Assembly: GCA_937888725.1 (NCBI GenBank)
Contig: CALARE010000009.1
Span: 970 to 64,969, forward strand
DNA length: 64,000 nucleotides
Reading direction: 5' to 3'
Origin: an uncultured Alphaproteobacteria bacterium
Lineage (GTDB): Bacteria; Pseudomonadota; Alphaproteobacteria; CAAHEQ01; UBA3637
Under the pieces are notes generated by a model. That model searched no databases, was not told the DNA's origin, and worked only from the letters and a program-made list of their open reading frames with translations. Below, one piece after another: positions 27,556-46,541 of this stretch. The first letter of the stretch is position 1. Every line of letters begins with the position of its first letter. The position numbers were made by a program, and so were the translations under genes.

Positions 27556-27632
27556 CGGAGTATAGCGCAGCCTGGTAGCGCACTCGTCTGGGGGGCGAGT
27601 GGTCGTGGGTTCAAATCCCGCTACTCCGACCA
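27556..27632 (+). tRNA. tRNA-Pro (anticodon GGG)
   Basis: Acceptor CGGAGTA/TACTCCG, anticodon arm CTCGT-CTGGGGG-GCGAG, T-arm GGTTCAAATCC, CCA encoded. Confidence 0.8.
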
Positions 27633-27639
27633 AATCAGA

Positions 27640-27670
27640 AAAAGACCACTTTTTAGTGGTCTTTTTTTTG
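27640..27670 (+). terminator. rho-independent terminator after tRNA-Pro
   Basis: aaagaccac…gtggtcttttttt hairpin plus T-run. Confidence 0.6.
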
Positions 27671-27801
27671 ATTTAGCCTGGAGAAGCGGGTTTGAAGTCA
27701 CGAGAAAGTGGGTTCAACCGCCGAAAAAAGGCAGACGAGAGTATGCCGGTTTTGTTTTAACAAAATTTTTCAAGGTCTGCGAAGGCTTTAAGCCGAAAGC
27801 A

Positions 27802-27822
27802 AAATCCCGCTACTCCGACCAA
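27802..27822 (+). repeat. 21-bp direct duplicate of the tRNA-Pro 3' end (att-like scar)
   Basis: aaatcccgctactccgaccaa is identical to 27613-27633. A further partial T-arm copy, gtgggttcaaccgcc, lies at about 27709-27723. Confidence 0.65.
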
Positions 27823-28171
27823 TATCAAAAAGCGGAAGTTTATACTTTCGCTTTTTTTGTTATCCAATTCCCCTGCAAAGCCCTAGGACAGCCAACTGTT
27901 AAAAAGTGATTTTATACCAAAATCGATGTGATTGCCGAGATTTTTCCAAATTGATATATACTTTTGCCCGAATATATATACCTTGTGCAATGTGATTTTT
28001 TCGCCAGAGCCACTTGACCGTAAGTTATTGTTTTTGAATAATTGATTATAATGGTATGACATTAACTTTCCGAATCTTGCCAAGCAGTGGTTGGTTTAGA
28101 AACCCAAAAACTGATATCACAATTTATACACCTCTCTAAAAGCCTTATTTTATAAGGGGTTTAATTTTTTT

Positions 28172-28193
28172 ATAACTTACACACATGGTGTTT
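28172..28193. repeat. 22-bp direct repeat flanking the two-gene helicase module (right-hand copy is at 37878..37899)
   Basis: ataacttacacacatggtgttt versus acaacttacgcacatggtgttt, 20 of 22 identical. Confidence 0.6.
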
Positions 28194-28239
28194 ACTATGC
28201 TATCTAATTATATAGTTTGATATAAAAATTCTTCGGCAT

Positions 28240-31200
28240 TTAATTCTTAGTGTAAAAAATTCTAGTTGGATAATTATCTCCTATTATGCTAGGTAATTCA
28301 ATGCTAATTTTTTGAACTTGAAAATCAACACTAGATTCAAATGGGAATAAATTTTCATAGTAATTGTACGCAGCACATCTCCAATATAAAAATCCTTGAT
28401 CGAAAATTAGATTTATAACATCCCCATTTTCTAGCTCAATAATTAAAATTCTATTGTGTTCTAGATATTTTTTATTTCTTTCTTGAATATTAAATTTTAG
28501 ATCAATGCTTGCAAACAATTTATTTAAAACAGCCTTGCGTTCAGATGATCTAGGCCATTCATCGTAAAATTTACCAGGTGTATATTTTATATTATCTTCA
28601 TTTTCACATGTTAATAAATTAATTTCAGTACACTTCCAATTATTTGCATATTTATTTTTTATTGCCTTTATAAAATTAAAGAATAAACCACAAGAAAGAG
28701 GATTTTTGATATAACGATCTTTGTACGTTATTTTTACTATATTGGATGAAATTCCGTTATTTAAACTCTCAGATAAAATATTTAACAAGCTTTGACCAAA
28801 TAAATTTCCGGAACAGTTTACTTCAGAGGAAATATTATACATTTTATCAAAGCTTGTTTTGATATCGCTGTTTAATGCTACATCGTAAAATTCTTTTTTA
28901 TCAATATCAATATATCCTGAAAGAATTGAAGTATTAACATTACTTCCCCAATATGGATTTAATTTTTTTACATCTTGATCTAAAGAAGCATAAGCATAAA
29001 AACCGGTACCGTTATTTATAACAGCCATTATATTCTTATTCAAATTATCTGGAATTGACTTTATTGAAACATTTTTATACTTAGAAAGCAATCCTAGAGT
29101 TTCTTTTACATCGTCACTGATTTTTGTCGCATCAACACATAAAATTGTATCAATTCCCATGGAATTATATCTATTTACTAATCTATATAATGGTGAGTTT
29201 AAAAAATCTTCATCATCATCTTGTTGGGGTACCAACAAATACAATTCCTTAATACTTAGAGTATCTTCAATTAAACTTTCGATACTGGCCGAAGCGATAA
29301 CTGTGGTATCGCCAAAAATTTTCATATTGTCGGCTAAAGTATTTTTTGAAATCCATTCATCTGTTAAAAAGTCTAAAGCTAATAACCTATCTAGGTGTTT
29401 ATAGTTGTATTTAGTATCATTTTGTAAAATACATTTATTACATGATTGAGCACAGTCACAAGTTAATGTATCTTTGGCATACTTAAATATGCGACTTAGA
29501 TTTTTGATAATATCATCAGATGAACAATAACCTGATGCATTTTTATCAAACAATTCTATTGAAAATCCTTTTTTATTTGATCCAACAAGTTTTATTTCTT
29601 TTGTTCCACAGCCAATTTCGTCAGTTTCGATATTCATATATTTGGCTATACCACTGCGAATTGCTACTGCCAATGAATATGCGAGAGTTTTATCGTTAAC
29701 AATTTCTCCGTTAATATCTGATAAAATAAGTTCCAAAACATCAGTTTTGACTTCAACTCCTAGAGAAATATTTTCCACTATTGAATATGGAGAATGATTA
29801 CATTCTACTTTCATATTTCTCATGTTGGGATTAAAACTATTTGCACTTCTTAAACGATAATGTGATTTTCTAAACTCAACTCTGTTCTTTTCATTGTTTG
29901 CAACAACTCTGCCACACTCTAAACAAAGTATGTAGCCGTCACCACCGCCATTTGAGTAATGAATGACACTTCCTTCTTTATCATTTTTATATTTTATGTA
30001 AGGTAAACCCAAATAATTATTTAAATCATTGTGAGCAGTAACTAGTGGTTCACATAAATTTACAAAATGTTGAACAGATACGTTATTATTAACGGGAGCA
30101 TTAAAATCAACAGAAAAACCTGCTGGCTGTATATACTTGTGAATATTATGTCTATCGATTTCTTCACCACATACATCACAGTGAATATCTAGTAATCTTG
30201 TTGATGTACCACTTGCACCACATTTATTACAACGCCAAAAATAACGAATTGACTGAATTTCTTTAACCTCTGTTTCTGAGGCAGGAATATGCCAATTTAG
30301 TGTAATACCTGCAGATTTATATACAAGACCATCAATAACAACATCGCTACCGGGAGCGTACTCTCTTAATGCTGTGCAAATATCTCTTGAAGGCAATTCT
30401 CTTCTTTTAAATAAATTGTCTTCTCTTTCTCCATAATTCTTTTGCATTCTATAGTCTTGATTTTCGATGCTATATCGATTGTTTGTATCAAAAGTTACGA
30501 TATTTATTGGAAAACCATATCGTGGTAAAATTCCATATCCTATCATTTCTTTTAATAGGTATTCATGCAGTAAGCGTGTCTCAGTATTTTTAATAGCGAT
30601 TAAACTAATTTTATGATCTTTTTCTCTCTTTTTTTGCTCTTGAATTGCATCATATTCAGCAAACCACTTCTTTTGCATATTTTCAATTTGCAGGCTCAAT
30701 TCTGAGACAAACACATCAAAACTAATATGTTCATAATGTGTATTTTTGATTAAAGAATGAATAGCCGCCTGAACTCGATTATTTGTTCTGATAGCATCTT
30801 TGCAGAAACGTTTAAATTTGGAAAGCTTATTATCTTTAAAAGGTAACATAAGCCATTCCATATTAAGTTTGGTCGCATCACTAATTTGGCCTTTAATTGA
30901 TTCAAAAAAGTAGGATAACAATAAAGAATTTATATGTCTCAATAATACAATAAAGCTGTATTGATCTACGTAAGGAGCATTTATTTTTGATGTAAATGCC
31001 CATTTGGGATGATTAAAAACATATTGGTCATGAGAGTTGTCTTTACATAAAGTAAAGCTTATCGCCTTTGTTTCTCTACGTCTTCCTGCACGTCCTGCAC
31101 GTTGTAAATAATTGGCCGGATGTGGCGGAACATTATTCATAGATGCAATCGTTATACCACCGATATCAACACCCATTTCCATTGTGGTTGAACAGTTAAG

Positions 31201-34200
31201 AACATTTATAGCTCCACTTTTAAATTCATCTTCATATCTTTTTAATAGTCGATGAGATTGTTGAGCCGAGTGTTCCGCTGTTCTGAAATATCTATTTCCA
31301 AGGATAATTGAGCTTGCAACGTTGCTCCATAACCCAAGTTTTTTTAAATTTTGTACATCTTCGTTGCTTTCAAGCCAATCTCTTCTTAATGAAATACATT
31401 CTTCATAAGATTTTCCTAGTTCATTTTTAAAATCATAAATTGGATAATTATATTTATTACACTTAGGGGTCGTTTTGCTTGAAGAATAAGGAGAATACCC
31501 TTTAAGTACAACATCTAAAGCCTTATTTGTCATAGGACAAATATAAATTTCTTTAGGTCTAGTTAAACCGATTTTATTTACATCTAATTTATATGTTTTT
31601 GCCGTTGACGGTGTTAAAATTCCAGTGGTAATTGTTAAAGCATCCCAAGCTTCTTTCATAATTTGATTTAAAATATCTAAATGAAGATCATTATCTATAC
31701 TTAAATCAAGAGCATATGACAATAAATTTATTATATTTTTATTTTTTTTCTTTTTTGCTACAGGCCAGTTTTCCTGATCTAAAGCTCTGTTTGTTCTTTG
31801 AAGAGCTCCCCATTTATTCCAGTTTTCAGGATAAGCAACATATCCATTGGCACGAATATAAAAATCTATTAGTATTTTAAGAAAGTCTTTCCATTCATTT
31901 AATTCAAAAAATCTATGTATAGTATCTGGTACTTTCGTGATTTTGCTAAAATCATAAACTGTTGATAACAATCCTAATGTTTCAACATTATTCGCTTTTT
32001 TCGGTCTTCGTAATAGTTCTCTAGCAAACAATATTTCTATTAAATTACGACGTCCTTTATCTGCATCAAAAATGGAATCTTTATCTCGATAATAATTATA
32101 TATCCATCTTAAATCATTGTCGTTAAATTCTTTTATTATTTGATTTAAGACCTCGTCTTCTTTTGCAAAAGAATCGTGTTTTTGTTCCAATTCTTTAATT
32201 GCATTTAATAAAGCAGGAAGTTTTGTCGTTTCATATAGTTTTTTTAATGCTGCAATATCAGTACTTCCTGATGGTTTTGTTTTTTCTTGTTCTAATAATG
32301 AAACAACGTGTAATAAGATACTTCTGAAACTGTTTCTTTCGGAGTTTTGTTGTAGTTGAACAGCTAACCTAGCAGTTCCCTGTCGGCTATCTGTAAAACA
32401 TATCATTTTCTGTCCTTTATGAGGATTTTCATCCAATTTTTCTCCTGCTTCAGCATAATTTAATAATGTCGGTAAAGCATGACTTAAAACAAATGGTGCA
32501 CCTTGCATAGGAAGAAATGATTTGATTTGGTCAATTTCAGGAGTATCACAACAATGGACATATTCATCATCTTCAAAAACATTTATCTTAATTCCATTTT
32601 CACAATTGCTAGACAATGAATTATCTGCAGTATTCAAATAAACAGAAGAATTATCATCTACATTGTAAATATATGCTGTGTGAGTTTCCAGTTCTACAAT
32701 ATTATTTTCTTCGTCTTCCAATGAAAACTCATCAACATTTTGCAACATCGTAGGATATAAGTATTTAGTGCCTGATTTTTTATCTTCACTGATTTTTGCT
32801 TCTAAGAAAGGTGTTCCACAATTTGAACAGGCTTTTACTCTGAAAACAGGAGCACCACATTCACAAGAGCATTGTTCTTTTAAGTAAATTTTTCCGTATT
32901 TCCACCCATCTATGTTGTCTTTATGCGTACATTTATCATTGCAGCAGGCCCATATACCAGGAAACGTCTTATGGAATAAATGCAAACGAAGTGGCAAAAA
33001 CGCCTTTTCTTTATTAGGAGTAACGGATAATAAATCAAGCCATTCTGCTGCTTCTTCCTTTGAAATTTTAAAAGTCTTACATATTTCTGATAAGGTTCTA
33101 GCAACAGAACGTGTCCCATCTTCAGAAATAAAGAATGATCGTAATTGGCAAGCAAATTTATTGTTTTTTAATTCTTTAATAAGTACATCAGGATCCGTTA
33201 TAATTTGCAGCTCAGATAATGATTTTGTTTGATTATCTGCTGTAATCGTTGGAATTTCATTATGTCCAAAAACAACTTCAATATTTTCTTCATTAACACC
33301 TGAAATACTTGATAAAAATTGTTTTAATTGCTGTTCTGCGTTTATGCTTCCGATAGTAGCAGATGTTGCGATAAACTTAACATCTTGAGCATTTACATCA
33401 AATGCATCTAAAACTCTCTTCAGAAGTAATGACAACTCTGCAGCTTGTGAACCAATATATGTATGAGCTTCGTCTAGAATAATGTATTTTAACATTCCCT
33501 TAGATTTATCAATAATTTGCTTATCATTTGCTCTAATAAGCATGTACTCTAACATCGTAGTATTGGTAATCAATAATGGTGCAGGAGATAAGCGAAGTCC
33601 CTGTCTATCGGTTATTTCTTCCAAGGATTTTTTTTGTTCGTGATTTGGATTTTCAGTAGGTAATAATCCATTATAAAGACAGAAACGAATTTTACCTTCG
33701 TAAGGTTTAGTCCATTCGCTAAAACGTTCTTTTTGGTTCTGAATTAATGCATTAAGAGGATATATAAATAAAGCCTGGACACCTTCTAAAACGTTTGAGC
33801 TACCTTTAGATTGTCTTACCAAATCAGATATGATGGGTATCATAAAGCATTCTGTTTTTCCTGAACCTGTACCACTTGAAACAACCAATGAATTATTTGT
33901 ATTTAATAATGTTTTCCAAGATGTTATTTGGTGTTCATAAGGGTGCATTGTTTTAGAAAATCTATATTCTGTAGATTTATTTAATACATTAACAAAAGAA
34001 CGTTCGAGCAGTTTTCCGGACAACTCTTCAAAAGAATTGCTATCTGTTTTATAACTAAACATTGGTTCAAACACAGGGTCAGAAAGGAATTTTTCATCTT
34101 CCAGTGAAAACTTATCTCTTAAAAACTCACGCAAATTTTGTGGCAATATGGATAAAGTGCTCATAATGGCATCTTTTGATTGCTCTGGTAATATTTTTAA

Positions 34201-34227
34201 GATTTCACTGTAACTGTTTCTTTTCAT
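28240..34227 (-). CDS. giant DEAH-box helicase with a DUF1998/MZB-type zinc-ribbon domain and an unknown ~600-aa C-terminal domain (DruE-like, 1995 aa)
   Basis: Motif I SSGTGSGKTE, motif II ILDEAHTY, motif VI QRAGRAGRR. After the helicase core come paired CxxC zinc ribbons (CNKCG…CDVCG, CLECG…C…C, CDCAQSCNKC). It is translationally coupled 1 nt after the upstream gene. Confidence 0.6.
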   Translation of the reverse strand: MKRNSYSEILKILPEQSKDAIMSTLSILPQNLREFLRDKFSLEDEKFLSDPVFEPMFSYKTDSNSFEELSGKLLERSFVNVLNKSTEYRFSKTMHPYEHQITSWKTLLNTNNSLVVSSGTGSGKTECFMIPIISDLVRQSKGSSNVLEGVQALFIYPLNALIQNQKERFSEWTKPYEGKIRFCLYNGLLPTENPNHEQKKSLEEITDRQGLRLSPAPLLITNTTMLEYMLIRANDKQIIDKSKGMLKYIILDEAHTYIGSQAAELSLLLKRVLDAFDVNAQDVKFIATSATIGSINAEQQLKQFLSSISGVNEENIEVVFGHNEIPTITADNQTKSLSELQIITDPDVLIKELKNNKFACQLRSFFISEDGTRSVARTLSEICKTFKISKEEAAEWLDLLSVTPNKEKAFLPLRLHLFHKTFPGIWACCNDKCTHKDNIDGWKYGKIYLKEQCSCECGAPVFRVKACSNCGTPFLEAKISEDKKSGTKYLYPTMLQNVDEFSLEDEENNIVELETHTAYIYNVDDNSSVYLNTADNSLSSNCENGIKINVFEDDEYVHCCDTPEIDQIKSFLPMQGAPFVLSHALPTLLNYAEAGEKLDENPHKGQKMICFTDSRQGTARLAVQLQQNSERNSFRSILLHVVSLLEQEKTKPSGSTDIAALKKLYETTKLPALLNAIKELEQKHDSFAKEDEVLNQIIKEFNDNDLRWIYNYYRDKDSIFDADKGRRNLIEILFARELLRRPKKANNVETLGLLSTVYDFSKITKVPDTIHRFFELNEWKDFLKILIDFYIRANGYVAYPENWNKWGALQRTNRALDQENWPVAKKKKNKNIINLLSYALDLSIDNDLHLDILNQIMKEAWDALTITTGILTPSTAKTYKLDVNKIGLTRPKEIYICPMTNKALDVVLKGYSPYSSSKTTPKCNKYNYPIYDFKNELGKSYEECISLRRDWLESNEDVQNLKKLGLWSNVASSIILGNRYFRTAEHSAQQSHRLLKRYEDEFKSGAINVLNCSTTMEMGVDIGGITIASMNNVPPHPANYLQRAGRAGRRRETKAISFTLCKDNSHDQYVFNHPKWAFTSKINAPYVDQYSFIVLLRHINSLLLSYFFESIKGQISDATKLNMEWLMLPFKDNKLSKFKRFCKDAIRTNNRVQAAIHSLIKNTHYEHISFDVFVSELSLQIENMQKKWFAEYDAIQEQKKREKDHKISLIAIKNTETRLLHEYLLKEMIGYGILPRYGFPINIVTFDTNNRYSIENQDYRMQKNYGEREDNLFKRRELPSRDICTALREYAPGSDVVIDGLVYKSAGITLNWHIPASETEVKEIQSIRYFWRCNKCGASGTSTRLLDIHCDVCGEEIDRHNIHKYIQPAGFSVDFNAPVNNNVSVQHFVNLCEPLVTAHNDLNNYLGLPYIKYKNDKEGSVIHYSNGGGDGYILCLECGRVVANNEKNRVEFRKSHYRLRSANSFNPNMRNMKVECNHSPYSIVENISLGVEVKTDVLELILSDINGEIVNDKTLAYSLAVAIRSGIAKYMNIETDEIGCGTKEIKLVGSNKKGFSIELFDKNASGYCSSDDIIKNLSRIFKYAKDTLTCDCAQSCNKCILQNDTKYNYKHLDRLLALDFLTDEWISKNTLADNMKIFGDTTVIASASIESLIEDTLSIKELYLLVPQQDDDEDFLNSPLYRLVNRYNSMGIDTILCVDATKISDDVKETLGLLSKYKNVSIKSIPDNLNKNIMAVINNGTGFYAYASLDQDVKKLNPYWGSNVNTSILSGYIDIDKKEFYDVALNSDIKTSFDKMYNISSEVNCSGNLFGQSLLNILSESLNNGISSNIVKITYKDRYIKNPLSCGLFFNFIKAIKNKYANNWKCTEINLLTCENEDNIKYTPGKFYDEWPRSSERKAVLNKLFASIDLKFNIQERNKKYLEHNRILIIELENGDVINLIFDQGFLYWRCAAYNYYENLFPFESSVDFQVQKISIELPSIIGDNYPTRIFYTKN

Positions 34228-34228
34228 G

Positions 34229-37200
34229 TTATCCTGCCAATTTTTGGTTTAACATTATAGATATTGCAATTTTATACACTTCTATAAAATAATTTTGGTT
34301 AAAATTTATAAAATCTTTTATTGAAAATTTAATTAATTCATTAATATTTGATGGGTTTGAATTAAGCTCTTGATAAAAAGAATAAAAAGCACAGACTTGA
34401 GGGAAATTAACAACATCTTCTATAAAGTAATTAAATTTATTCAATCTAAATAAATGTTTTTCAAGATTACTTAATTCTACCGGGTGTTTTACTTTTATTT
34501 CATTGTATACCTTATCAAATGGTAGATATATCCAATTATCTTCCTCTAATGAATTTTGTGTTTGTAGTTGATGCATCCAACACATTTCAACAATATTCCC
34601 GTATTCGTCAAATACTTGTTTTGTAAAAATTTCATCACTTAGCTCTTTAATACTTTTTGTATTTGCGATAGAAACATGAGGAACGATATTGCCAAGTATA
34701 AGAAAATTGTAAAACTTTGAAAGCAAACCGCAAAGTGAATAATATACAGCCAATTCTATTTCGGGGAATGTTTCAGACAAGATATTAAATTGCTCATTAA
34801 TTTGCGATTTTAGAATTTCTTCCATGCCTGGTATAGAAGAAAATGTTGTTTTAATATAGTTTAAATATTCTTCAATAGCAGGCTCCCAAAGTGAGAATGG
34901 GATAGTTGCCGGAACAGATATTACTTCTTCTTTTATTTTTTGAAGCATAAATCTATCAGATGAAAAATAGATGAGCAATCTGCATAATATTTTTTCATCT
35001 GAACATAATATTTGCCAAAGGTTCATAGATGATAGTGGAATGTCGTGTGAAACAAAAATTTGCTTCAAACTACTAATATCTTTCCATACATCAGATGAAA
35101 AATCTGAAAGGTTTGCAAGTATGATATCTTTTATTTGTTGTTTATTATCGGCCTCTAAAACAGCTTCTTCAATTTCTTCAAAAGAAGCATCTGAGTAAGA
35201 AATTTCATTTTTTAAAATTACTAATTTATATAATTCGGTAAGTTCATCTAGACTAGTATCACTATATAGAATTAGAGGTTTGGTGTTTATTTGAGATTTT
35301 TTATCAGAAACCAGGATGTAACAATTCTTTTTTAAATCAATTGGTTCAATACTCCAATATCCTGTACATATTTGGTCCTCCATCTTCTGCTCAAGAATAA
35401 CAGGTTCACATTCAGGATCGGATAAATTGATGGCTTTGACTATTGTGTTTTTGAGCATGTCATTTGTATACATACCAAAATTTGCAGGCGGTATATAAAC
35501 TGATTGGGTTTCTAGCAACAGATGTGTATCGTATCTTGAAACATTTATAAATCCCAAATTTTTATTTTCTAACGTTATAGATATTTTGACTTTGTCATCT
35601 TCATTTTCGGAATACCCAAATAAATTTTTTATATTGTCTTCAAAATCAATTAATTTAATCTCTGTTAATACGTCATTTGTGTATATATGGCGTGTTAAAG
35701 ACAAATTTTTACTTGTTCGTACTTTTGTACGTAATTCAAAATGAAGTTTATATTTTGAAGAAGATTTTAAGTTATTAAATATTCTAATTCTTTTGCCCAT
35801 TAAATGAACTAAAGAAATATTAGAAGAATTTATACATTTTTTATTTTCATCAAAAAATGATACTCCAACTGAAGGGTATGGAAGATATATCAGAGATGTA
35901 CCACCGCTATACCAATATATCTTAAAACATACTTTATCTGGTTTTGTTGTTGTAGTTTCAAATTGAAATTCACATCCATCAACTACTGTGCATTTTAATG
36001 AATCAGATAATAATGGTTCAATTTTAATGGCATTTAAACTATTAAGCTTAATTACTCCATTACCATTTTCCAACGCATTAAAATTTATTGATGAACTGGG
36101 TGGTAATATCGTCACGCTAAAAGTTTTAGAAATACCACCATGGGTACAATTGATATCAAGATTTCCCGAAAACTTATTGATGTCTACAATGGGGTGTGTT
36201 GTATCTTTGTAATAATAATTTATATATCGTGAAGAAACATCATTTTTTTTAGAAGTCTCATCATAATATATAATTTTTGGAATTCCACGATAAGCAACAA
36301 ATGGGAAAGTTTTATACGTTATAATATTGCCTTCTACACAATATTTATTGTTTGAAGGGTTAGATGAATTTAATTGAACAAAAAAGTCATCAAATTCAAA
36401 ACTTTCTTTGCATTTAATTAATCTGAAGACAATATCGTCAATTACAATATCAGTTACATATTCACCTACTGAACTATAATCATTGTTTTTTTCATTATAT
36501 GCTATAAAGCATTCGCTTTCTCTTAAATACGCACTTCCATTGTTTTTTAATATTAATAGGCCATCTTCGTTTTCAGTAAATACAAGGGGCCTATTAACAT
36601 CAATTGATTGAGAAATTGTGATGCTATTTGATTGTATTTTATTATCAGCACTGGATAAAAATAATGTTACAGAATTTTTGACATCAAGTCTATCGTCAAA
36701 TTGTCTTATTTTATACTGTTTTTTTGATCCAAGTATTAAGTTTACAATAGCAATTGTTGTATTTTCGCTATCTAAGTTATTGATATAAAATGTTTGAGGT
36801 AATGTATTTACATCAGTAATTCCAAAATATTTTGAAAAATATTTAGCCTCTACATTAAATTCAGGAAAAATAAATTGAAATTTTAATTTATTTGAATTTT
36901 CTAAATCCAGTATTCTTTCAACTGTTGGGATTTTCCCCTGTACTCTCACTCCTGTGGAACGACTTGCTTCTTCTACGAAACCACTCAACATTTTTTCAAC
37001 AGATGCATCCTCCATAAGAAGAGGAAACTGAGACTTCCAATCTGGAGCTCGTTGATTTAATATTTGAATTGGATTTTTATACTCTTGTAGCTTATAATCT
37101 ATTTTTAGCTTGATAATAGTTGTTACTAAACTTGTAATAAGTTCACAAATTTCATCTTTTCTAATGGCTTCAGGAAGTATTTTTTGCAGATTTTTAACAT

Positions 37201-37720
37201 ATGCAAATAATTCAGCTCCGTTTGAAGTATGCTCTGTTGCAAATCTAATTGTATGATGCAGTATTTTTACAACAGGAGAATTTTTGCTTGCTGCTTGTAT
37301 AAATTTAGAAGGAATACCACCATTTGCTACAATTGCACCTAAATATTTTTTACCAGAAACTAAAGTTATGTTATACTTCCAGTACTGTAAAGCTTCTATA
37401 ATTGCATTGGTTCTTACGTTGGATTGATATATTTTTAATTCGTCATTGGAAATAGATGAAAATATGGGATCCCATGACCAAGCACCACCCTTGTATTCAC
37501 GTTTCCACCATTCAGAAGCATAAAGCACAAAGCAGCGAGAAAAATACTTATTTTTAAGCAAATCTACGAGCGAATGGTATTGACAGCAATATTTTAGTTT
37601 GTTTCTAAGGTCTTCGTATTCTGCTTTGTTCATCTGATATGCATAAAGCATCATGCCATTTGGGTAAGGCATATTCCTTTTTTGTAAAAAATCTCTTAAA
37701 AATTCATGTAATATTTCCAT
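34229..37720 (-). CDS. large hypothetical protein (~1163 aa) with no recognisable motifs, upstream partner of the helicase (DruH-like by position)
   Basis: Long uninterrupted ORF. The start is chosen at the ATG at 37718-37720, preceded by AAAGGTG (the ORF-track start at 37756 has no RBS). The stop is 1 nt before the helicase ATG. Confidence 0.5.
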   Translation of the reverse strand: MEILHEFLRDFLQKRNMPYPNGMMLYAYQMNKAEYEDLRNKLKYCCQYHSLVDLLKNKYFSRCFVLYASEWWKREYKGGAWSWDPIFSSISNDELKIYQSNVRTNAIIEALQYWKYNITLVSGKKYLGAIVANGGIPSKFIQAASKNSPVVKILHHTIRFATEHTSNGAELFAYVKNLQKILPEAIRKDEICELITSLVTTIIKLKIDYKLQEYKNPIQILNQRAPDWKSQFPLLMEDASVEKMLSGFVEEASRSTGVRVQGKIPTVERILDLENSNKLKFQFIFPEFNVEAKYFSKYFGITDVNTLPQTFYINNLDSENTTIAIVNLILGSKKQYKIRQFDDRLDVKNSVTLFLSSADNKIQSNSITISQSIDVNRPLVFTENEDGLLILKNNGSAYLRESECFIAYNEKNNDYSSVGEYVTDIVIDDIVFRLIKCKESFEFDDFFVQLNSSNPSNNKYCVEGNIITYKTFPFVAYRGIPKIIYYDETSKKNDVSSRYINYYYKDTTHPIVDINKFSGNLDINCTHGGISKTFSVTILPPSSSINFNALENGNGVIKLNSLNAIKIEPLLSDSLKCTVVDGCEFQFETTTTKPDKVCFKIYWYSGGTSLIYLPYPSVGVSFFDENKKCINSSNISLVHLMGKRIRIFNNLKSSSKYKLHFELRTKVRTSKNLSLTRHIYTNDVLTEIKLIDFEDNIKNLFGYSENEDDKVKISITLENKNLGFINVSRYDTHLLLETQSVYIPPANFGMYTNDMLKNTIVKAINLSDPECEPVILEQKMEDQICTGYWSIEPIDLKKNCYILVSDKKSQINTKPLILYSDTSLDELTELYKLVILKNEISYSDASFEEIEEAVLEADNKQQIKDIILANLSDFSSDVWKDISSLKQIFVSHDIPLSSMNLWQILCSDEKILCRLLIYFSSDRFMLQKIKEEVISVPATIPFSLWEPAIEEYLNYIKTTFSSIPGMEEILKSQINEQFNILSETFPEIELAVYYSLCGLLSKFYNFLILGNIVPHVSIANTKSIKELSDEIFTKQVFDEYGNIVEMCWMHQLQTQNSLEEDNWIYLPFDKVYNEIKVKHPVELSNLEKHLFRLNKFNYFIEDVVNFPQVCAFYSFYQELNSNPSNINELIKFSIKDFINFNQNYFIEVYKIAISIMLNQKLAG

Positions 37721-37877
37721 ATAGGCACCTTTAATGAATACAATATTGTATTTCATAGCATATTTTTTTTAATTATTCAACAAACTTCATTATTAGAAGT
37801 GCCAAAAAATGACGTTTGTTCATATGTTTTTTTGCAAAAATAGTTAAGGTATCTACTTTAAGGAACTTTAATATTTT

Positions 37878-37899
37878 CTACAACTTACGCACATGGTGT
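37878..37899. repeat. 22-bp direct repeat, second copy, in the divergent promoter region
   Basis: See 28172..28193. Confidence 0.6.
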
Positions 37900-38020
37900 T
37901 TGGGGTATATAAAGAGATTTTCATTTTTTTTGAAAAAAATGACTATTTTCTTGCAATTTTAGGTATAAGTCGTTAAAATGTGACGGATTATAATTTTATG
38001 CTGATAAATGAGGTGTTTTC

Positions 38021-40069
38021 ATGGCAGACGATATTCAAATTCAAAAAATGGACGGCAAGAGCCTTGATGTGACGGGCGTAAACAAGGAAAAGTTGAAAAC
38101 GGTTTTTCCTGAGTGTTTTACCGAGGGTAATTTGGATATTGATAAACTGTTGTCTTTATGTGGTGAATACATAGACAACGATTTTGAAAAGTATAAATTT
38201 GAATGGAAAGGCAAATCTGAATGTTATCGGATTACTGGTAAGCGTTCAACCGGGACACTTCGTCCTTGTGTGGAAGAGAGCGTGGATTTTGAAAACACCA
38301 ATAATCTTTATATTGAAGGCGACAATTTAGAAGTTTTGAAACTTTTACAAACAGCCTATTATCGCAAAGTCAAAATGATTTATATTGATCCGCCGTATAA
38401 CACAGGCAATGATTTTGTTTATGAAGATGATTTTAAGAACCCGATGGCAAAATATAAAGAAATTACAAGCCAAACAACAAAATCAAATCCCGAAACAATG
38501 GGCAGATATCATACCAACTGGTTGAATATGATGTATCCTCGCTTGCGTTTAGCCTCTAACTTACTTCGTGATGATGGTGTGATTTTTATCAGCATTGATG
38601 ATAATGAAGTTACAAATCTTCGTCGTTTATGCGATGAGGTATTTGGGGAGGAGAATTTTGTAGCTCAATTTATAGTAGCCTCTAATTCAACAAAAAATAA
38701 TTCAAAATATGTTTCTGTTTCTCATGAGTATATTTTATGTTACTGTAAAAATATCTACTCACTTGGAGATGAGTGGAAAGTAAAAAAGAATAACGTTGAT
38801 GAATATTACAATCGTGCAATGCAACTTGTTAAAAGAAATTTATCAGAAGATGAGATTCATAATGAATTATTAGAGTTGGTAAAATATCCAAGATTTTATG
38901 ATTTAGATCACTATACCTATGCGGATAAAAAAGGAATATATCAGACAGATAATCCTGGTGGAGTAACCAATGGAAATATGCTTACGGAAGTTATTCATCC
39001 TGTAACAGGAAAAGTCTGTGCAAAACCCATTGGGGGTTGGAGATATAAAGATGAAGAAATCAAAAGATTAGAAAAAGAAGGTTTGTTAGCTTTTGGTAAA
39101 GATGAGACAATCGTTCCTAGACCTAAACGATATTTAGGGGATTATATTTATCAAGTTCCTAAATCAACGCTTTTCTTTGACTCTCAATCATCTACAAAAT
39201 GGTTAAAAGCTAATAATTTGCCTTTTGATTTTGCAAAGGCAGTTGATTTTATAAAGTATATTTTATCTACCTCATCTAAGGAAGACGATATCATTCTTGA
39301 CTTTTTCTCAGGCTCTGCAACTACGGCTCATGCAGTTATGCAATTAAATGCCGAAGATGGTGGCAAACGTCAATTTATCATGGTGCAATTACCGGAAGTA
39401 ACCGATGAAAAGTCTGAAGCATTCAAAGCCGGATATAAAAACATTTGTGAAATAGGTAAAGAGCGTATCCGTCGTGCCGGTGCTAAAATCAAAGCAGAAG
39501 ATGATTTATGGAAAGAAGTTCCTCTTAATCGACTTCCCACACCAGAAGCACAGGCTTGGGTGCCTCCAAATTTAGTTAGAGTAGAAGACTTAAAAGATAG
39601 AAAATCACCAATAGAATATGTTGATGAAAGTAAAAATCCTGATGTTGGCTTTAAAGTATTCAAATTAGATACTTCAAACCTTGTTAAATGGGATGATACT
39701 CCTATTGAAGGGGTTGATACAACCGATTTGTTTAATCGTATGGACGGTATGGTTGAAAGCATTAAAAAAGACCGGACCGAACTTGATGTTGTCTATGAAG
39801 TAATGTTAAAACTCGGGATTCCCTTGACATATAAAGTCTTTGAAAATGAAGTGAATGGTCGCAAAGTTTACTCTATTGGCGATGATGGGTTGATTTTGGT
39901 ATGCTTGGATAAATCAAATGGCGGCATTACACCGGAAGATATTTCTGCTATGTGCGATTTAACACCGGCTAAAATCGTAGCTGCAGAAGAAGCCTTTAAG
40001 GACGATGTCGCTCTTTCAAACGCTTACTACATCTCAAAAGACAAAGGCGTGGAAATAGAATTGTTGTAG
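38021..40069 (+). CDS. mod: Type III R-M-like N6-adenine DNA methyltransferase (Mod, beta-class)
   Basis: Motif IV DPPY (IYIDPPYNTGNDF) N-terminal to motif I FLDFFSGSATT, ~680 aa, GAGGTG RBS. Confidence 0.75.
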   Translation: MADDIQIQKMDGKSLDVTGVNKEKLKTVFPECFTEGNLDIDKLLSLCGEYIDNDFEKYKFEWKGKSECYRITGKRSTGTLRPCVEESVDFENTNNLYIEGDNLEVLKLLQTAYYRKVKMIYIDPPYNTGNDFVYEDDFKNPMAKYKEITSQTTKSNPETMGRYHTNWLNMMYPRLRLASNLLRDDGVIFISIDDNEVTNLRRLCDEVFGEENFVAQFIVASNSTKNNSKYVSVSHEYILCYCKNIYSLGDEWKVKKNNVDEYYNRAMQLVKRNLSEDEIHNELLELVKYPRFYDLDHYTYADKKGIYQTDNPGGVTNGNMLTEVIHPVTGKVCAKPIGGWRYKDEEIKRLEKEGLLAFGKDETIVPRPKRYLGDYIYQVPKSTLFFDSQSSTKWLKANNLPFDFAKAVDFIKYILSTSSKEDDIILDFFSGSATTAHAVMQLNAEDGGKRQFIMVQLPEVTDEKSEAFKAGYKNICEIGKERIRRAGAKIKAEDDLWKEVPLNRLPTPEAQAWVPPNLVRVEDLKDRKSPIEYVDESKNPDVGFKVFKLDTSNLVKWDDTPIEGVDTTDLFNRMDGMVESIKKDRTELDVVYEVMLKLGIPLTYKVFENEVNGRKVYSIGDDGLILVCLDKSNGGITPEDISAMCDLTPAKIVAAEEAFKDDVALSNAYYISKDKGVEIELL

Positions 40070-40079
40070 AGGTGTTGGG

Positions 40080-40802
40080 ATGATTTTTATATTTGAAGAA
40101 ATAATAACAAAAGGTTTTTGGGATTGGATTGAAACAATAGCCACAATATTGGGTAATATTGGTCTTTTTATTATTACTTTTTACGTATTCTGGAAACAAT
40201 ATTTTTCAAAAAATATAAAAATAACTTCAAGCGGAGAACATTCGTCTATTTACTTTGGAAATGCGATTAACTGTACGCTTTTTAACAAGACACTTTCACC
40301 TGTTGTTGTTGAAAAAATTGATGTTGTATATGATAATAAATATGAAGTAACTATAAAAGATTTTAAAGAAAATCCTCTTGTTCTAGAATATTTTAGATCA
40401 GCTTATATTAAAGGGGAAAGATATACTTCATTATCTGAAAAATTAAATACTCTTTTTGCAAGAGATGTCTATTATAAAGTCAAAACCCCAGATAAAACTA
40501 TACTGATAAAAAGTAGAGGAAAAATAAAGAAGAAAAATAAACTTACGCATATTGCAACATTTACACAACGTTTTGATGATACTGTAATTTCAAAAGGTGT
40601 ACGCTATGTTTTAATTTATTGGCTAAAAGGAACTAAGGAATTTAATAGGGTATTCATTTTAGATAACGGTATGATGGACAAGAATATTGCAAACTTCAAT
40701 CAATTACCAAGAGAAATTCTTGGCAAACCAAAAGAAATGTTAAAGTTTTTTAAAGAAACATTCAACAATCCAGATTTAAATATTCGGATTCATGAACTTT
40801 AA
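40080..40802 (+). CDS. small membrane protein of unknown function inserted between mod and res
   Basis: 240-aa ORF with an N-terminal TM helix (IATILGNIGLFIITFYVFW). An AGGTG RBS sits 10 nt after the mod stop. Confidence 0.5.
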   Translation: MIFIFEEIITKGFWDWIETIATILGNIGLFIITFYVFWKQYFSKNIKITSSGEHSSIYFGNAINCTLFNKTLSPVVVEKIDVVYDNKYEVTIKDFKENPLVLEYFRSAYIKGERYTSLSEKLNTLFARDVYYKVKTPDKTILIKSRGKIKKKNKLTHIATFTQRFDDTVISKGVRYVLIYWLKGTKEFNRVFILDNGMMDKNIANFNQLPREILGKPKEMLKFFKETFNNPDLNIRIHEL

Positions 40803-43976: not shown

Positions 43977-46541
43977 ATGGCTGAGGCTTCACGTTTTCAA
44001 TCCTCGTTTGAAGCGGTTTGGACGGCAAGATGTCTTGCCGGTCTTGTTGATGATGAAAATTTAGTGCCTGCGTTTGCCTCTGCTAACATTAAGATTTTGC
44101 CATATCAAATAGCGGCGGCCCGTTTTGCTTTGCGATCTGCAAACTTAAAAGGCTGTATTTTATGTGATGAAGGCAGTCTTGGTAAAACTTATGAGGCTTT
44201 GTTGGTTGTATCGCAACGTTGGTATGAAGGTAAAGAACGGATTTTAATCGTTTTGCCCCAAAACCTTAAAAGTCAATGGCAAGAAAAACTCACCAAAGAA
44301 TTTACTCTACCGATAACCGATTGGAGCGAATATACACAAGAGACCAAAGGCCTGTGCCTGATGACGTATGATGAAGTCATTAAAAATGAAGAAAAAGTCG
44401 GCCAAATTGTTTGGGATTTAGCTGTTTTTGATGAGGCAGATTTTCTATTCAAACCAGACAACAAATCGGTTTCTACGATTAAAAAGGCAGTTGGGAATGC
44501 GTTTAAATTGCTTTTAACCCCGACCCCTATTACATTAAGCATCATGGATATTTATGGACTTATCCATTTTATTGATGAAACTTTGTTGCCCGATGCTGAC
44601 AGCTTTTATAAAAGATATTTTAGAAAGCCCGAAAACTATCCTGAACTTTCATCATGGGTATCCAAATTTGCGTTTAGAACTTTAAAAAGACAGGTTGAAC
44701 CTTATGTTAATTTTACCAAACGTTTGCCGGTTGTTCTAAATTACACGCCACAAGATGACGAGAAAAAGCTCTATGATTTAACCGAAAAATATTTGGCTCT
44801 TGATAACAAAACTGCCTATCCGCAAATGGATAATTATCAGTTAGCATTACAATTTTATAGAAATCTTTCTTCCTCTCCGCAGGCTTTTGCCAATATGCTG
44901 TCGGCTCCGATTGAACGGGCTTCGTCTGATGAACGCATTATTTTACAGACAATGCAAAAAATGGCTTTAGATGTTTCCGTTTCGGCTAAAATGGAAGAAT
45001 TATTAAAGGCACTAAAAACAACATTTACGCATTTAAAATCACGCAAAGAAGTGCAAAAAACCATTATTTTTGTTGATAACCTGACAACTTTATCCGTTTT
45101 ATCAGAGTTATTAAAGGAACATTATTCGATTATAAAACACACAGATGATAATGCTTTGAACATTTTTAGAGAAGATAAAAATATTCAAATTCTTATCACA
45201 AACGATGCAACTGCCAAAGGCTTAGACATAGAATATTGCCCCATTGTCGTGAACTATGATTTACTTTATAACGCCGTTGAGATGGAACAACGAATTTGTC
45301 GTTGCCACCGCCAAGGACAACAATCCGATGTGTTGGTTATCAATTTGCTCAGTCAGGAAAATATGTCTGATGTGCGTATTTTGGAATTGATTAACAAACG
45401 AACTTTACAATTTCAGGGTATTTTCGGGATGTCAGACGATATTGTCGGTCATTTTGATGAAACTTTGGAGGCTGTTTTACAAAAACGACGAACCTTGCCC
45501 GATATTCAACGGGATTTTGCACAGAACTTAGAAACAAATAAAGATGCCAACTCTCAAGTTGTTTCGGATGCCGAAAGTGTTTTGTTTACGACATTTACAA
45601 AAGATGTAGCCGAAAAAGTACAGGTTTCACCGCAGTATATTCAAGAACAGGCCGAGTTCATCAATCGGGACTTATGGGAGGTTGTAAAGTTCTATTTTGA
45701 AAAACATTTTCCTGAATATGTTATTGATGAAAACAATCAAACCTTAACCCTTTCGGACGGTTATGAGCCGCCAAAGATGTTCTATTATTGGAATGGGACA
45801 AGAAATACACCTTATACGGGAAAACGTCAGTATGGTATGGCAAAAGATTTTAAACCTTCCAGTGGTCGGATTACCCTGACATCAATTTTAGCCAAGGGAA
45901 TTTTTAGTGAAATTGAATGTTCTACAGAGGGTAAAATGCACCTTGAAACAGATATACCTTCCTGTCAAATCAGCATGTATATGGTTGAATTACGCCGAAA
46001 AGGAAAGTTCCTTAAATGTTATGATGTTTTAACCGGTAAGACGAGAGATGGCAAGATTTTAACACAAGAAGAATGTGTAAAAATTCTATCACAGCCAATT
46101 AAATCTCTTGAAAATAAGGATAGAGAACGGTCTTATTGGCTTGCAAACAGTTCGTTTTCTGACAGATTGCCATTAGCCTTAGAGAATGAGTTGAAAAACA
46201 ACTATATCAAGCAACAAGAAAATTGTTTTAATGCTGATATTGATATCATTAAAATGCGTTCATCTCGTCAAAAAGCCGTATTAGAACAAACTCTTGAATC
46301 CTTACGCCAAGAAACATCAAAAATTAAAGAGAGTATCGGTAGTGCTAAAGACCGCTTAGAAGAACTTAAAATTCAAAAACAAATCAACGAAATGGAAAAA
46401 CAACTCCGCAAAAAAGAAGAAGGCTTGTTCTTTGAACAAATGCGTATCGAAGCCACCGCCGAAGAACAAATAGAACAACTCTGTGCTACTGAAAATATAG
46501 AGGTTAAATTATCAAAGGTATTTAAGGTGATGGTTTGTTGA
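43977..46541 (+). CDS. SNF2-family helicase-like protein with a C-terminal coiled-coil region (854 aa)
   Basis: LPYQIAAARF, CDEGSLGKTYEALLV, VFDEADFL, LLLTPTP, QRICRCHRQGQ. The start is 4 nt after the res stop. Confidence 0.65.
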   Translation: MAEASRFQSSFEAVWTARCLAGLVDDENLVPAFASANIKILPYQIAAARFALRSANLKGCILCDEGSLGKTYEALLVVSQRWYEGKERILIVLPQNLKSQWQEKLTKEFTLPITDWSEYTQETKGLCLMTYDEVIKNEEKVGQIVWDLAVFDEADFLFKPDNKSVSTIKKAVGNAFKLLLTPTPITLSIMDIYGLIHFIDETLLPDADSFYKRYFRKPENYPELSSWVSKFAFRTLKRQVEPYVNFTKRLPVVLNYTPQDDEKKLYDLTEKYLALDNKTAYPQMDNYQLALQFYRNLSSSPQAFANMLSAPIERASSDERIILQTMQKMALDVSVSAKMEELLKALKTTFTHLKSRKEVQKTIIFVDNLTTLSVLSELLKEHYSIIKHTDDNALNIFREDKNIQILITNDATAKGLDIEYCPIVVNYDLLYNAVEMEQRICRCHRQGQQSDVLVINLLSQENMSDVRILELINKRTLQFQGIFGMSDDIVGHFDETLEAVLQKRRTLPDIQRDFAQNLETNKDANSQVVSDAESVLFTTFTKDVAEKVQVSPQYIQEQAEFINRDLWEVVKFYFEKHFPEYVIDENNQTLTLSDGYEPPKMFYYWNGTRNTPYTGKRQYGMAKDFKPSSGRITLTSILAKGIFSEIECSTEGKMHLETDIPSCQISMYMVELRRKGKFLKCYDVLTGKTRDGKILTQEECVKILSQPIKSLENKDRERSYWLANSSFSDRLPLALENELKNNYIKQQENCFNADIDIIKMRSSRQKAVLEQTLESLRQETSKIKESIGSAKDRLEELKIQKQINEMEKQLRKKEEGLFFEQMRIEATAEEQIEQLCATENIEVKLSKVFKVMVC

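Follow-up and report, generated by a model that had tools for sequence, protein, structure and literature searches.

A predicted Druantia type III-A anti-phage gene pair carried as a discrete low-GC unit beside tRNA-Pro in an uncultured gut alphaproteobacterium

Type III Druantia is an anti-phage system of two proteins, DruH and DruE, the mechanism of which has been addressed in five 2026 studies. According to all of them, DruH and DruE act jointly in a protection that leaves the cell alive, and DruE, a helicase of 3'-to-5' polarity, forms dimers and loads onto exposed single-stranded DNA (ssDNA), 3' tails or forks; in the systems tested, DruH and DruE alone suffice for defence. In the Pseudomonas system, PaDruantia, DruH was described as a 3'-5' exonuclease, forked DNA was found to drive formation of a 1:1 DruE-DruH complex through DruH's C-terminal domain and the stalk of DruE, and the pocket of the DruE PLD region was needed for degradation and defence, with DruE PLD nuclease activity reported (Loeff, Chanez and Jinek 2026, the Jinek preprint). 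Nuclease activity of both DruE and DruH is reported in the Nobrega/Patel preprint, which proposes DruH as a protein-sensing module. In the Taylor and Wahl preprints, the PLD domains were dispensable and nuclease activity of DruE was not seen, and the Taylor preprint presents DruH as an ssDNA binder inhibited by ATP, which competes. The system of M. smegmatis is described (PMC13316683) as blocking phage DNA circularisation and replication. Here we analyse a candidate pair of this kind in a stretch of 64,000 nucleotides (nt), hereafter the window, from an uncultured Alphaproteobacteria bacterium (contig CALARE010000009.1 of assembly GCA_937888725.1, positions 970-64,969, forward strand). A first-pass annotation of the window had called the mechanism of such systems unknown, which is out of date, since the five studies describe a mechanism and disagree on the nuclease role of either protein.

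The pair is encoded by two adjacent genes:

28240..34227, reverse strand: druE, 1995 amino acids (aa), a YprA/MrfA-like superfamily 2 (SF2) DEAH helicase that also carries zinc modules, an MZB domain and, C-terminally, two PLD-like domains
34229..37756, reverse strand: druH, a 1175-aa open reading frame (ORF) of the YjiT family, with a helical N-domain, an immunoglobulin (Ig)-like beta-rich array and a helical C-domain

In this tightly packed operon druH comes first and druE second, and the junction sequence noted earlier (...GGATAAcATG...) was confirmed, the stop of druH and the start of druE lying 1 base apart. The neighbours are a tRNA-Pro on one side and a type III restriction-modification (R-M) operon on the other, and among the neighbouring ORFs scanned with Pfam and PADLOC no match to DruA-D, DruF or DruG was found.

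Profile searches assigned both proteins to type III. The 1995-aa protein was matched by PADLOC DruE3 (PDLC00037) with 1899.7 bits over residues 2-1991 and profile positions 2-2051 of 2055, and by the PADLOC DruE profiles of types I, II and IV with 342-554 bits in partial matches only. The 1175-aa protein was matched by PADLOC DruH3 (PDLC00049; 309.4 bits, E = 1.2e-92, residues 17-1172) and by NCBIfam NF038336 YjiT_fam (451 bits, cut-off 150), and Pfam YjiT_N and YjiT_2nd are precomputed on a protein identical to it. The closest solved structures are those of the E. coli type III-A system (EDL933 / ATCC 8739; 9tu7-9tuc for DruE, here EcDruE, and 9tud for DruH, here EcDruH), which has the same druH-druE order. 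EcDruE (9tu7, 2108 aa) aligned end to end with 948 bits, residues 5-1972 here (5-682 and 727-1972) against 11-2085, the present protein being 113 aa shorter; EcDruH aligned with E = 9.4e-20, chiefly through its N-terminal domain. The DruE3 and DruH3 profiles, the matches to solved DruE and DruH, the MZB domain described below and YjiT_fam establish the two proteins as DruE and DruH, and we consider with high confidence that the pair forms an intact anti-phage system of Druantia type III, subtype III-A. Its activity against phage is predicted from homologues that protect. The first-pass reading of the large helicase and large upstream gene as DruH-DruE thus held, and the profile searches it had proposed returned type III for both proteins. 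The system type is already known and partly understood, and the present locus changes nothing known of that type.

To follow the partnership, genomes were scanned with a DruE alignment, which gave more than 590 relatives, and the best 80 loci were examined for DruH. A DruH-profile match lay directly 5' of DruE on the same strand in 75 of the 80, and the other five carried too little upstream DNA (75 of 75 informative loci). As side observations, P0009, of 1015 aa, has Pfam matches of both DruH (YjiT_N, YjiT_2nd) and DruE (DEAD, ResIII, YjiV_N), and represents a fusion of DruH with DruE or else an assembly that is frameshifted or chimeric. Distant DruH homologues of about 1460-1500 aa (P0010, P0012, P0014, P0017 and P0019) carry a match to PF04545, which we take to be the sigma-70 region 4 helix-turn-helix domain, fused to the YjiT domains, and this suggests a DNA-binding or regulatory variant of DruH.

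The start of DruH was also considered. An ATG at 37720, corresponding to Met13 and to a protein of 1163 aa, has an AAGGTG ribosome-binding site 6 nt on its 5' side, and none precedes 37756. The PADLOC and NCBIfam profile matches begin at residues 13-20, residues 1-9 of the structure model have a predicted local distance difference test score (pLDDT) below 50, and in copies of the L098 type, described below, homology to the window starts at 37751. Since these features agree with the 1163 aa annotated at NCBI, DruH probably starts at Met13. The members of the identical-protein clusters at NCBI, both from an Alphaproteobacteria metagenome-assembled genome, are named "hypothetical protein" (MBE6453440.1, 1163 aa) and "DEAD/DEAH box helicase" (MBE6453439.1), and the present analysis supplies a correct naming of the pair. 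The host is an uncultured gut alphaproteobacterium of a low-GC lineage, into which the range of Druantia III-A is extended; the nearest species-representative loci are those of an uncultured alphaproteobacterium, with DruE 69% identical, and of Candidatus Enterousia, with a PLD-less DruE 46% identical.

The domains of DruE were located as follows:

33349..33936, reverse strand: RecA1, residues 98-293 (Pfam DEAD, E = 1.9e-24)
31078..31299, reverse strand: RecA2 core, residues 977-1050 (Pfam Helicase_C, E = 1.8e-10)
29428..29670, reverse strand: MZB/DUF1998, residues 1520-1600 (PF09369, 30.8 bits, cut-off 24.2, profile positions 2-80 of 80)
28243..29310, reverse strand: tandem PLD-like domains, approximately residues 1640-1995 (model, Foldseek and alignment to EcDruE)

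The SF2 DEAH helicase had been called complete, and its motifs were all recovered, with Walker A (GTGSGKT, 119-125), DEAH (252-255) and SAT (289) in RecA1, motif VI (QRAGRAGRR, 1042-1050) in RecA2, and about 680 aa of inserted domains between the two. In an alignment of 18 sequences (A1), no variation is seen in Walker A, DEAH, SAT or motif VI, and E253 aligns with the positions changed in helicase-dead PaDruE (E266) and EcDruE (E252). The full-length Pfam scan of the 1995-aa protein returned DEAD, Helicase_C and ResIII only and did not list PF09369 at E <= 0.1; the domain was seen only in a sub-sequence scan of residues 1280-1639 (360 aa), where it scored above its cut-off, as the earlier suggestion of an MZB had anticipated. 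Precomputed PF09369 is likewise missing from the closest DruE homologues, and many other homologues have it. The apparent absence of a domain from a very long protein calls for a recheck on fragments.

The cysteines of DruE fall into clusters at 428-470, 559/560, 1333-1353, 1435/1438 and 1590-1599, and several clusters after the helicase had earlier been read as of the DUF1998/MZB kind. That holds only for the last, in which C1590-x-C1592-x3-C1596-x2-C1599 is invariant in alignments A1 and A4 and has the spacing of EcDruE C1681/C1683/C1687/C1690, the mutation of which abolishes defence. The other clusters, the cysteines of which are invariant among the 18 sequences, are separate zinc modules and match the extra modules of EcDruE, whose inserted double zinc domain and OB/zinc domain contain two each.

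After the MZB domain, the first-pass annotation had left about 600 aa unassignable; the segment is in fact about 350-450 aa, and the structure prediction that it called for gave a pair of PLD-like domains. Residues 1540-1995 were modelled with AlphaFold (mean pLDDT 84.3), and the Foldseek matches of the model were MITD1, vaccinia F13, bacterial PLD, NgoAVII R-protein, SauUSI, Tdp1 and NucT, a resemblance to MITD1 having been noted for the PLD region of PaDruE in the Jinek preprint. The segment can be aligned to the PLD-like part of EcDruE, the YxDRY and HxR motifs included, and D1674, D1837-R1838-Y1839 and H1924-x-R1926 are conserved in it. EcDruE is likewise noted as having no HxK(x)4D, and because this motif is missing here despite the PLD-like fold, we call the domains PLD-like and do not assert HKD-type catalysis. 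Subtype III-A DruE has two C-terminal PLD-like domains, and III-B is compact and mostly lacks them; the predicted fold and the alignment thus place the present system in III-A. Among fairly close relatives, DruE of P0040-P0050 and of locus L024 (Candidatus Enterousia) is about 1610-1630 aa long, 46-49% identical over 82% coverage, and has no PLD-like C-terminus. The PLD pair has therefore been lost or gained among such relatives, which is consistent with its reported dispensability.

The model of DruH (mean pLDDT 83.3) consists of helices over residues 11-266, strands over 278-830 and helices over 833-1174. This architecture, obtained by the structure prediction proposed earlier for what was then a protein with no recognisable motif, agrees with the DruH seen by cryo-electron microscopy, in which six Ig-like domains lie between helical N- and C-domains; Foldseek, with a PDB library older than 9tud, returned tandem Ig-like arrays only. 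DruH is very divergent from EcDruH (73 bits), sharing its overall architecture and an alignable N-terminal helical domain (16-298 here against 10-281), and the C-terminal domains cannot be aligned. In the middle region, a weak alignment suggests that EcDruH Y670, N672 and Y733 are not conserved and is too weak to rely on. An Enterobacter metagenomic DruH was tried as a proxy for E. coli numbering and dropped, 3 of 8 pocket residues having matched.

Residues of PaDruantia were mapped onto the present proteins, the PaDruE numbering being transferred by way of a proxy from P. arcuscaelestis that is offset by 6 residues; the mapping is therefore approximate:

PaDruE E266 (helicase): E253 here, conserved
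PaDruE D1740: D1674 here, conserved
PaDruE D1917/R1918/Y1919: D1837/R1838/Y1839 here, conserved
PaDruE H1999/R2001: H1924/R1926 here, conserved
PaDruE H1830, R1951, S2022: P1758, C1874, L1947 here, not conserved
PaDruH E64: E82 here, conserved; E in 84 of 93 DruH sequences

The residues at which mutation abolishes defence by PaDruE, E266, D1740 and D1917/R1918, are therefore all kept by this approximate mapping; the differences from PaDruantia lie at H1830, R1951 and S2022 of DruE and at three positions of DruH considered below. As such a divergent copy, the present pair helps to tell residues kept across the family from lineage-specific ones: the helicase motifs, the MZB cysteines, the DRY/HxR pocket and E82 of DruH are retained, PaDruH R22, K28 and E220 are not, and this bears on the dispute as to whether DruH and the PLD pair of DruE are nucleases.

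With EcDruE the present DruE shares Walker A, DEAH, motif VI, the cysteines of five zinc modules, the MZB spacing and the DRY/HxR of the second PLD-like domain, and it is about 31-38% identical to proteobacterial DruE proteins, including one that is E. coli-like. In place of Zorya II or ARMADA II neighbours, a type III R-M and an SNF2 helicase adjoin here. MrfA/YprA of Bacillus subtilis (6znp) has in common with DruE the SF2 DEAH core, the OB fold and the MZB, and 3'-to-5' polarity in the members studied. In contrast to DruE, however, it is 751 aa long, lacks the PLD pair and the inserted cap, zinc and dimerisation domains, and is partnered by the exonuclease MrfB, not by DruH. DISARM is built of the same modules within one helicase family, with the YprA-type helicase DrmA, the DUF1998 protein DrmB and the PLD protein DrmC, and the PADLOC DrmA profiles matched DruE weakly (37-40 bits). 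In DISARM, however, each of these is a protein of its own, and a methyltransferase and, in class 1, the SNF2 protein DrmD accompany them, whereas here they are fused in DruE, which is paired with DruH, and the methyltransferase and SNF2 genes beside it are separable modules.

The first-pass annotation had further described the module as an independently acquired cassette bracketed by direct repeats, which is borne out by the repeats themselves, an empty site in a sister strain, near-identical copies at three tRNA-Pro genes and a lower GC content. The features concerned are:

28166..28193, forward strand: left repeat R, downstream of the druE stop by 47 nt and with the same sequence as the single copy of the empty site in L002
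37874..37901, forward strand: right repeat R', in the divergent druH/mod intergenic region, differing from R at 3 of 28 positions
27815..28165, forward strand: left-end segment of the tRNA-Pro-associated variable region, which accompanies Druantia, about 99% identical, in both L087 and L098-L104

The two repeats match at 25 of 28 bases, and their 20-nt core occurs exactly twice in the window (0.01 expected by chance). The cassette has 29.6% GC, with about 19.5% at third codon positions (GC3), against 35.8% for the R-M operon, 28-35% GC3 for mod, res and SNF2, and 34.6-35.3% GC for the flanking core; a lower GC is thus real, and the earlier phrase "far more A+T-rich" overstates a 6-point gap.

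Sister contigs were fetched through the exact TyrRS protein of the window, and other contexts through near-identical DruE proteins. In L002, from a near-identical strain, there are no Druantia genes and the type III R-M follows directly after the left-end segment. This contig aligns with window positions 27802-28193 and 37859-39494, with an overlap of 41 nt, the segment 28194-37873 being absent, and the three-way alignment shows the left flank, a single repeat copy and the right flank. Identity to the window falls from 98.7% in the core flank to 95.7-96.3% in the L002 island, and because the latter is thus a diverged allele, the version that carries Druantia looks to be recently spreading. In L087, window positions 27815-38601 recur at 99.07% (blastn) beside a tRNA-Pro(TGG); the restriction partner there is a different one (Mrr). 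In L098, L099 and L103, positions 27815-37751 recur at 98.89% (blastn); in L098-L104 Druantia stands next to a further tRNA-Pro(TGG) of distinct sequence, HflX and Hfq lie downstream, and both the R-M and the right repeat are missing. The segment is therefore found at about 99% identity beside three different tRNA-Pro genes. A more distant pair (DruE 82% identical, about 78% at the DNA level) shares homology that ends where the genes end (28246-37786) and occupies another island, after SIR2-pAgo. The pair is thus a discrete, horizontally moving unit, a 9.7-kb low-GC insert that is spreading among uncultured alphaproteobacteria, and its filled and empty alleles, together with the 99%-identical copies at three tRNA-Pro genes, present a defence system as a discrete exchangeable unit in a hotspot. 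As a side observation, the island of the 82%-identical pair (L088-L095, L006) holds an EcoO109I-type R-M, a P63C-domain protein, and SIR2 with a short pAgo (Piwi), and has at least three downstream flanks (AhpC/GreA, Metallophos/TatC and a Na/H exchanger).

How the unit moves is a more speculative matter. The 28-nt repeat contains an imperfect palindrome with the core ACAC-ACATG-GTGT, and the unit of about 10 kb (27815-37751 or 27815-37901) could be envisaged as a recombinase-less cassette moved in trans to tRNA-Pro hotspots, with the repeat as its recombination site; we regard this as doubtful, and if true it would be a so far undescribed form of defence-system shuffling in these uncultured alphaproteobacteria. 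The 20-nt core was found, among all fetched loci, only in L002, and the 28-nt repeat was absent from 80 other Druantia loci; two matches in a JGI metagenome scan were taken as chance because neither has homology to the window, and the repeat is thus not a widespread cassette site. A megablast comparison of the 10-kb unit with plasmid and phage collections gave no match. A reading of the repeat as an integron attC was rejected, since it lacks an RYYYAAC/GTTRRRY core and an IntI gene is absent.

Several points weigh against an intact and mobile Druantia III-A. The published mechanisms conflict on nuclease activity of DruE and DruH. In DruE, residues 1600-1995 contain neither HxK(x)4D nor HxK, the nearest motif being H1924-N-R1926, and the region aligned with the dimerisation four-helix bundle of EcDruE is about 37 aa shorter and partly unaligned. 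In DruH, PaDruH R22, K28 and E220 are replaced by M35, Q41 and S242, alanine substitution of R22 and K28 being known to abolish defence, and the ssDNA/ATP pocket of EcDruH (R1031, H1062, R1064, K1067) could not be mapped, phmmer with DruH residues 840-1175 finding no match in the PDB. No integrase, transposase or recombinase was found by Pfam and PADLOC among the ORFs scanned at 20-57.6 kb. The replaced DruH residues, essential in Pseudomonas, and the shorter putative dimerisation region would fit a relic that no longer defends or has shifted in function. We consider this improbable, since neither of the two long ORFs is interrupted, copies with about 99% identity are maintained in many metagenomes and in three or more genomic contexts, and the key residues of the helicase, MZB and PLD pocket are all kept. 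Moreover, R22 and K28 are variable in the family, R or K occupying these positions in only 56 and 53 of 93 sequences and Q standing at K28 in every close relative; the basic residues are thus lineage-specific and not family-defining, and a DruH clade without them may sense infection differently from the Pseudomonas protein. Even less credible, to the point of being nearly negligible, is a housekeeping DNA-repair helicase of MrfA/YprA or Lhr type beside an unrelated large gene, with no role in defence. Such a helicase would account for the core, OB fold and MZB shared with MrfA, and YprA (6znp) does match with 73.6 bits and Lhr-type proteins with 47-50 bits, but DruE3 and the solved EcDruE match far more strongly and over the full length, so that the best match to a repair helicase named earlier as counting against Druantia was not what we found. 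No MrfB-like exonuclease partner is present and DruH is upstream in every informative locus; the pair comes and goes among near-identical strains and adjoins R-M, pAgo-SIR2 and similar systems, the contexts being variable and rich in defence genes and not a conserved, repair-like neighbourhood; and homologous pairs protect against phage in the E. coli, P. aeruginosa and M. smegmatis systems.

Two further alternatives concern the surroundings of the pair. The region at 28.2-46.5 kb has a domain inventory equal to that of DISARM class 1 (YprA helicase, DUF1998, PLD, SNF2 and N6-methyltransferase), druH and mod share a divergent intergenic region of about 265 bp, and the same Druantia copy in L087 adjoins another Mod-type methyltransferase, with Mrr. 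Druantia, the divergent type III R-M and the DrmD-like SNF2 could thus form one composite DISARM-like system, in which methylation would shield self DNA from DruE. This is very improbable, as the modules are separable, L002 having the R-M and SNF2 without Druantia, L098-L104 having Druantia without the R-M, and L088-L095 having Druantia beside pAgo-SIR2; the SNF2 protein, furthermore, reaches only 253 bits against a DrmD_b cut-off of 950, and DruH-DruE alone are enough in tested systems. The other alternative, possible and rather less unlikely, is that the repeat is not an insertion scar, Druantia and the R-M being ancestral and L002 having lost Druantia through recombination between two pre-existing similar sequences. 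The copies differ at 3 of 28 positions, with weaker similarity extending to about 41 nt, and so resemble diverged paralogous sequence and not a fresh target-site duplication, and the final 12 nt, which they share, can accommodate the crossover whichever direction is assumed. However, the divergence of the L002 island beside a more conserved core, together with the close likeness of the Druantia copies across tRNA-Pro loci, fits recent spread, and the lower GC of the cassette fits acquisition. The matter concerns polarity only, the repeat bounding a discrete unit in either direction.

For an intact Druantia III-A, the mechanism at this locus may be proposed by analogy with its homologues, and would likely be a helicase-driven attack on phage replication intermediates that contain ssDNA. 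DruE, as an ATP-driven 3'-to-5' YprA/MrfA-like helicase, would rest as a dimer, load on ssDNA exposed at forks and tailed duplexes arising from phage replication and recombination, and then unwind them, for which the MZB zinc domain would be required. DruH would bind or trim single-stranded 3' ends and, at forked DNA, use its C-terminal domain to contact DruE. DNA cleavage may be added by the PLD-like pair at the C-terminus of DruE; such cleavage, whether by the PLD pair or by DruH, is disputed among the homologues. The phage DNA intermediates would be destroyed and the cell would survive.

Two further features lie beside and within the variable region that holds the pair:

27556..27632, forward strand: tRNA-Pro(GGG) (ARAGORN; Rfam tRNA 61.4 bits)
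37757..38020, no strand assigned: divergent druH/mod intergenic region, holding R' and a promoter-like site for mod

The 3' 21 nt of tRNA-Pro(GGG) are repeated at 27802-27822, just before the variable region, which spans 27832-56813 (about 29 kb) and is missing from the sister contigs L001 and L003; in these its place is taken by about 1.2 kb with a NUDIX gene, in L001 together with tRNA-like units. Its cargo comprises Druantia III, the type III R-M with the SNF2 helicase and an ABC-F ATPase, together with a low-GC cluster of radical-SAM, glycosyltransferase, methyltransferase and hexapeptide-transferase genes. No att-like copy of the tRNA 3' end was found at the right border (56.8 kb). The promoter-like TTGCAA-17-TAAAAT at 37951-37979 is a consensus match only, and in the promoter and terminator scan sites were no more frequent than in shuffled sequence.

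After the tRNA-Pro come one or more units, each about 150-190 nt long, at 27640-27826 in the window, 8640-9200 in L001 and 12414-12585 in L098. The units start with a GGAGAAGCGGG-like sequence and end with a copy of the tRNA 3' end (AAATCCCGCTACTCCGACCAA or AAATCCCGAACGAAGACCAA), after which comes a terminator hairpin. That of the window folds with a stem closing its ends (minimum free energy -49.1 kcal/mol, z = -3.1). The units belong to no Rfam family and gave no ARAGORN call, Rfam searches of 27.3-38.2 kb and of the L001 units returning only tRNA above threshold. They may have been left behind by repeated integration at tRNA-Pro, or may represent a tRNA-like small RNA that is so far undescribed.

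On the other side of the pair, the slot between mod and res (40080-40802) holds a 240-aa ORF with no family match and 26% GC. The corresponding slot in L002 (5238-7081) holds a 316-aa ORF and a KilA-N protein, and in L087 (374-1276) an Mrr_cat nuclease directly follows mod; type III R-M systems do not usually carry additional genes between mod and res. The SNF2 helicase (43977-46541, 854 aa) lies after res in the same direction and matches DrmD of PADLOC with 266 bits and, below the cut-off given above, NCBIfam DrmD_b. With DruE included, the island therefore holds every DISARM class 1 domain type, the modules being separate in other strains. The centre of the mod gene (38601-39284 and 39494-39770) differs among the window, L087 and L002, both ends being 95-99% identical, which is the pattern expected, as judged from sequence, for allele swapping of a target-recognition domain.

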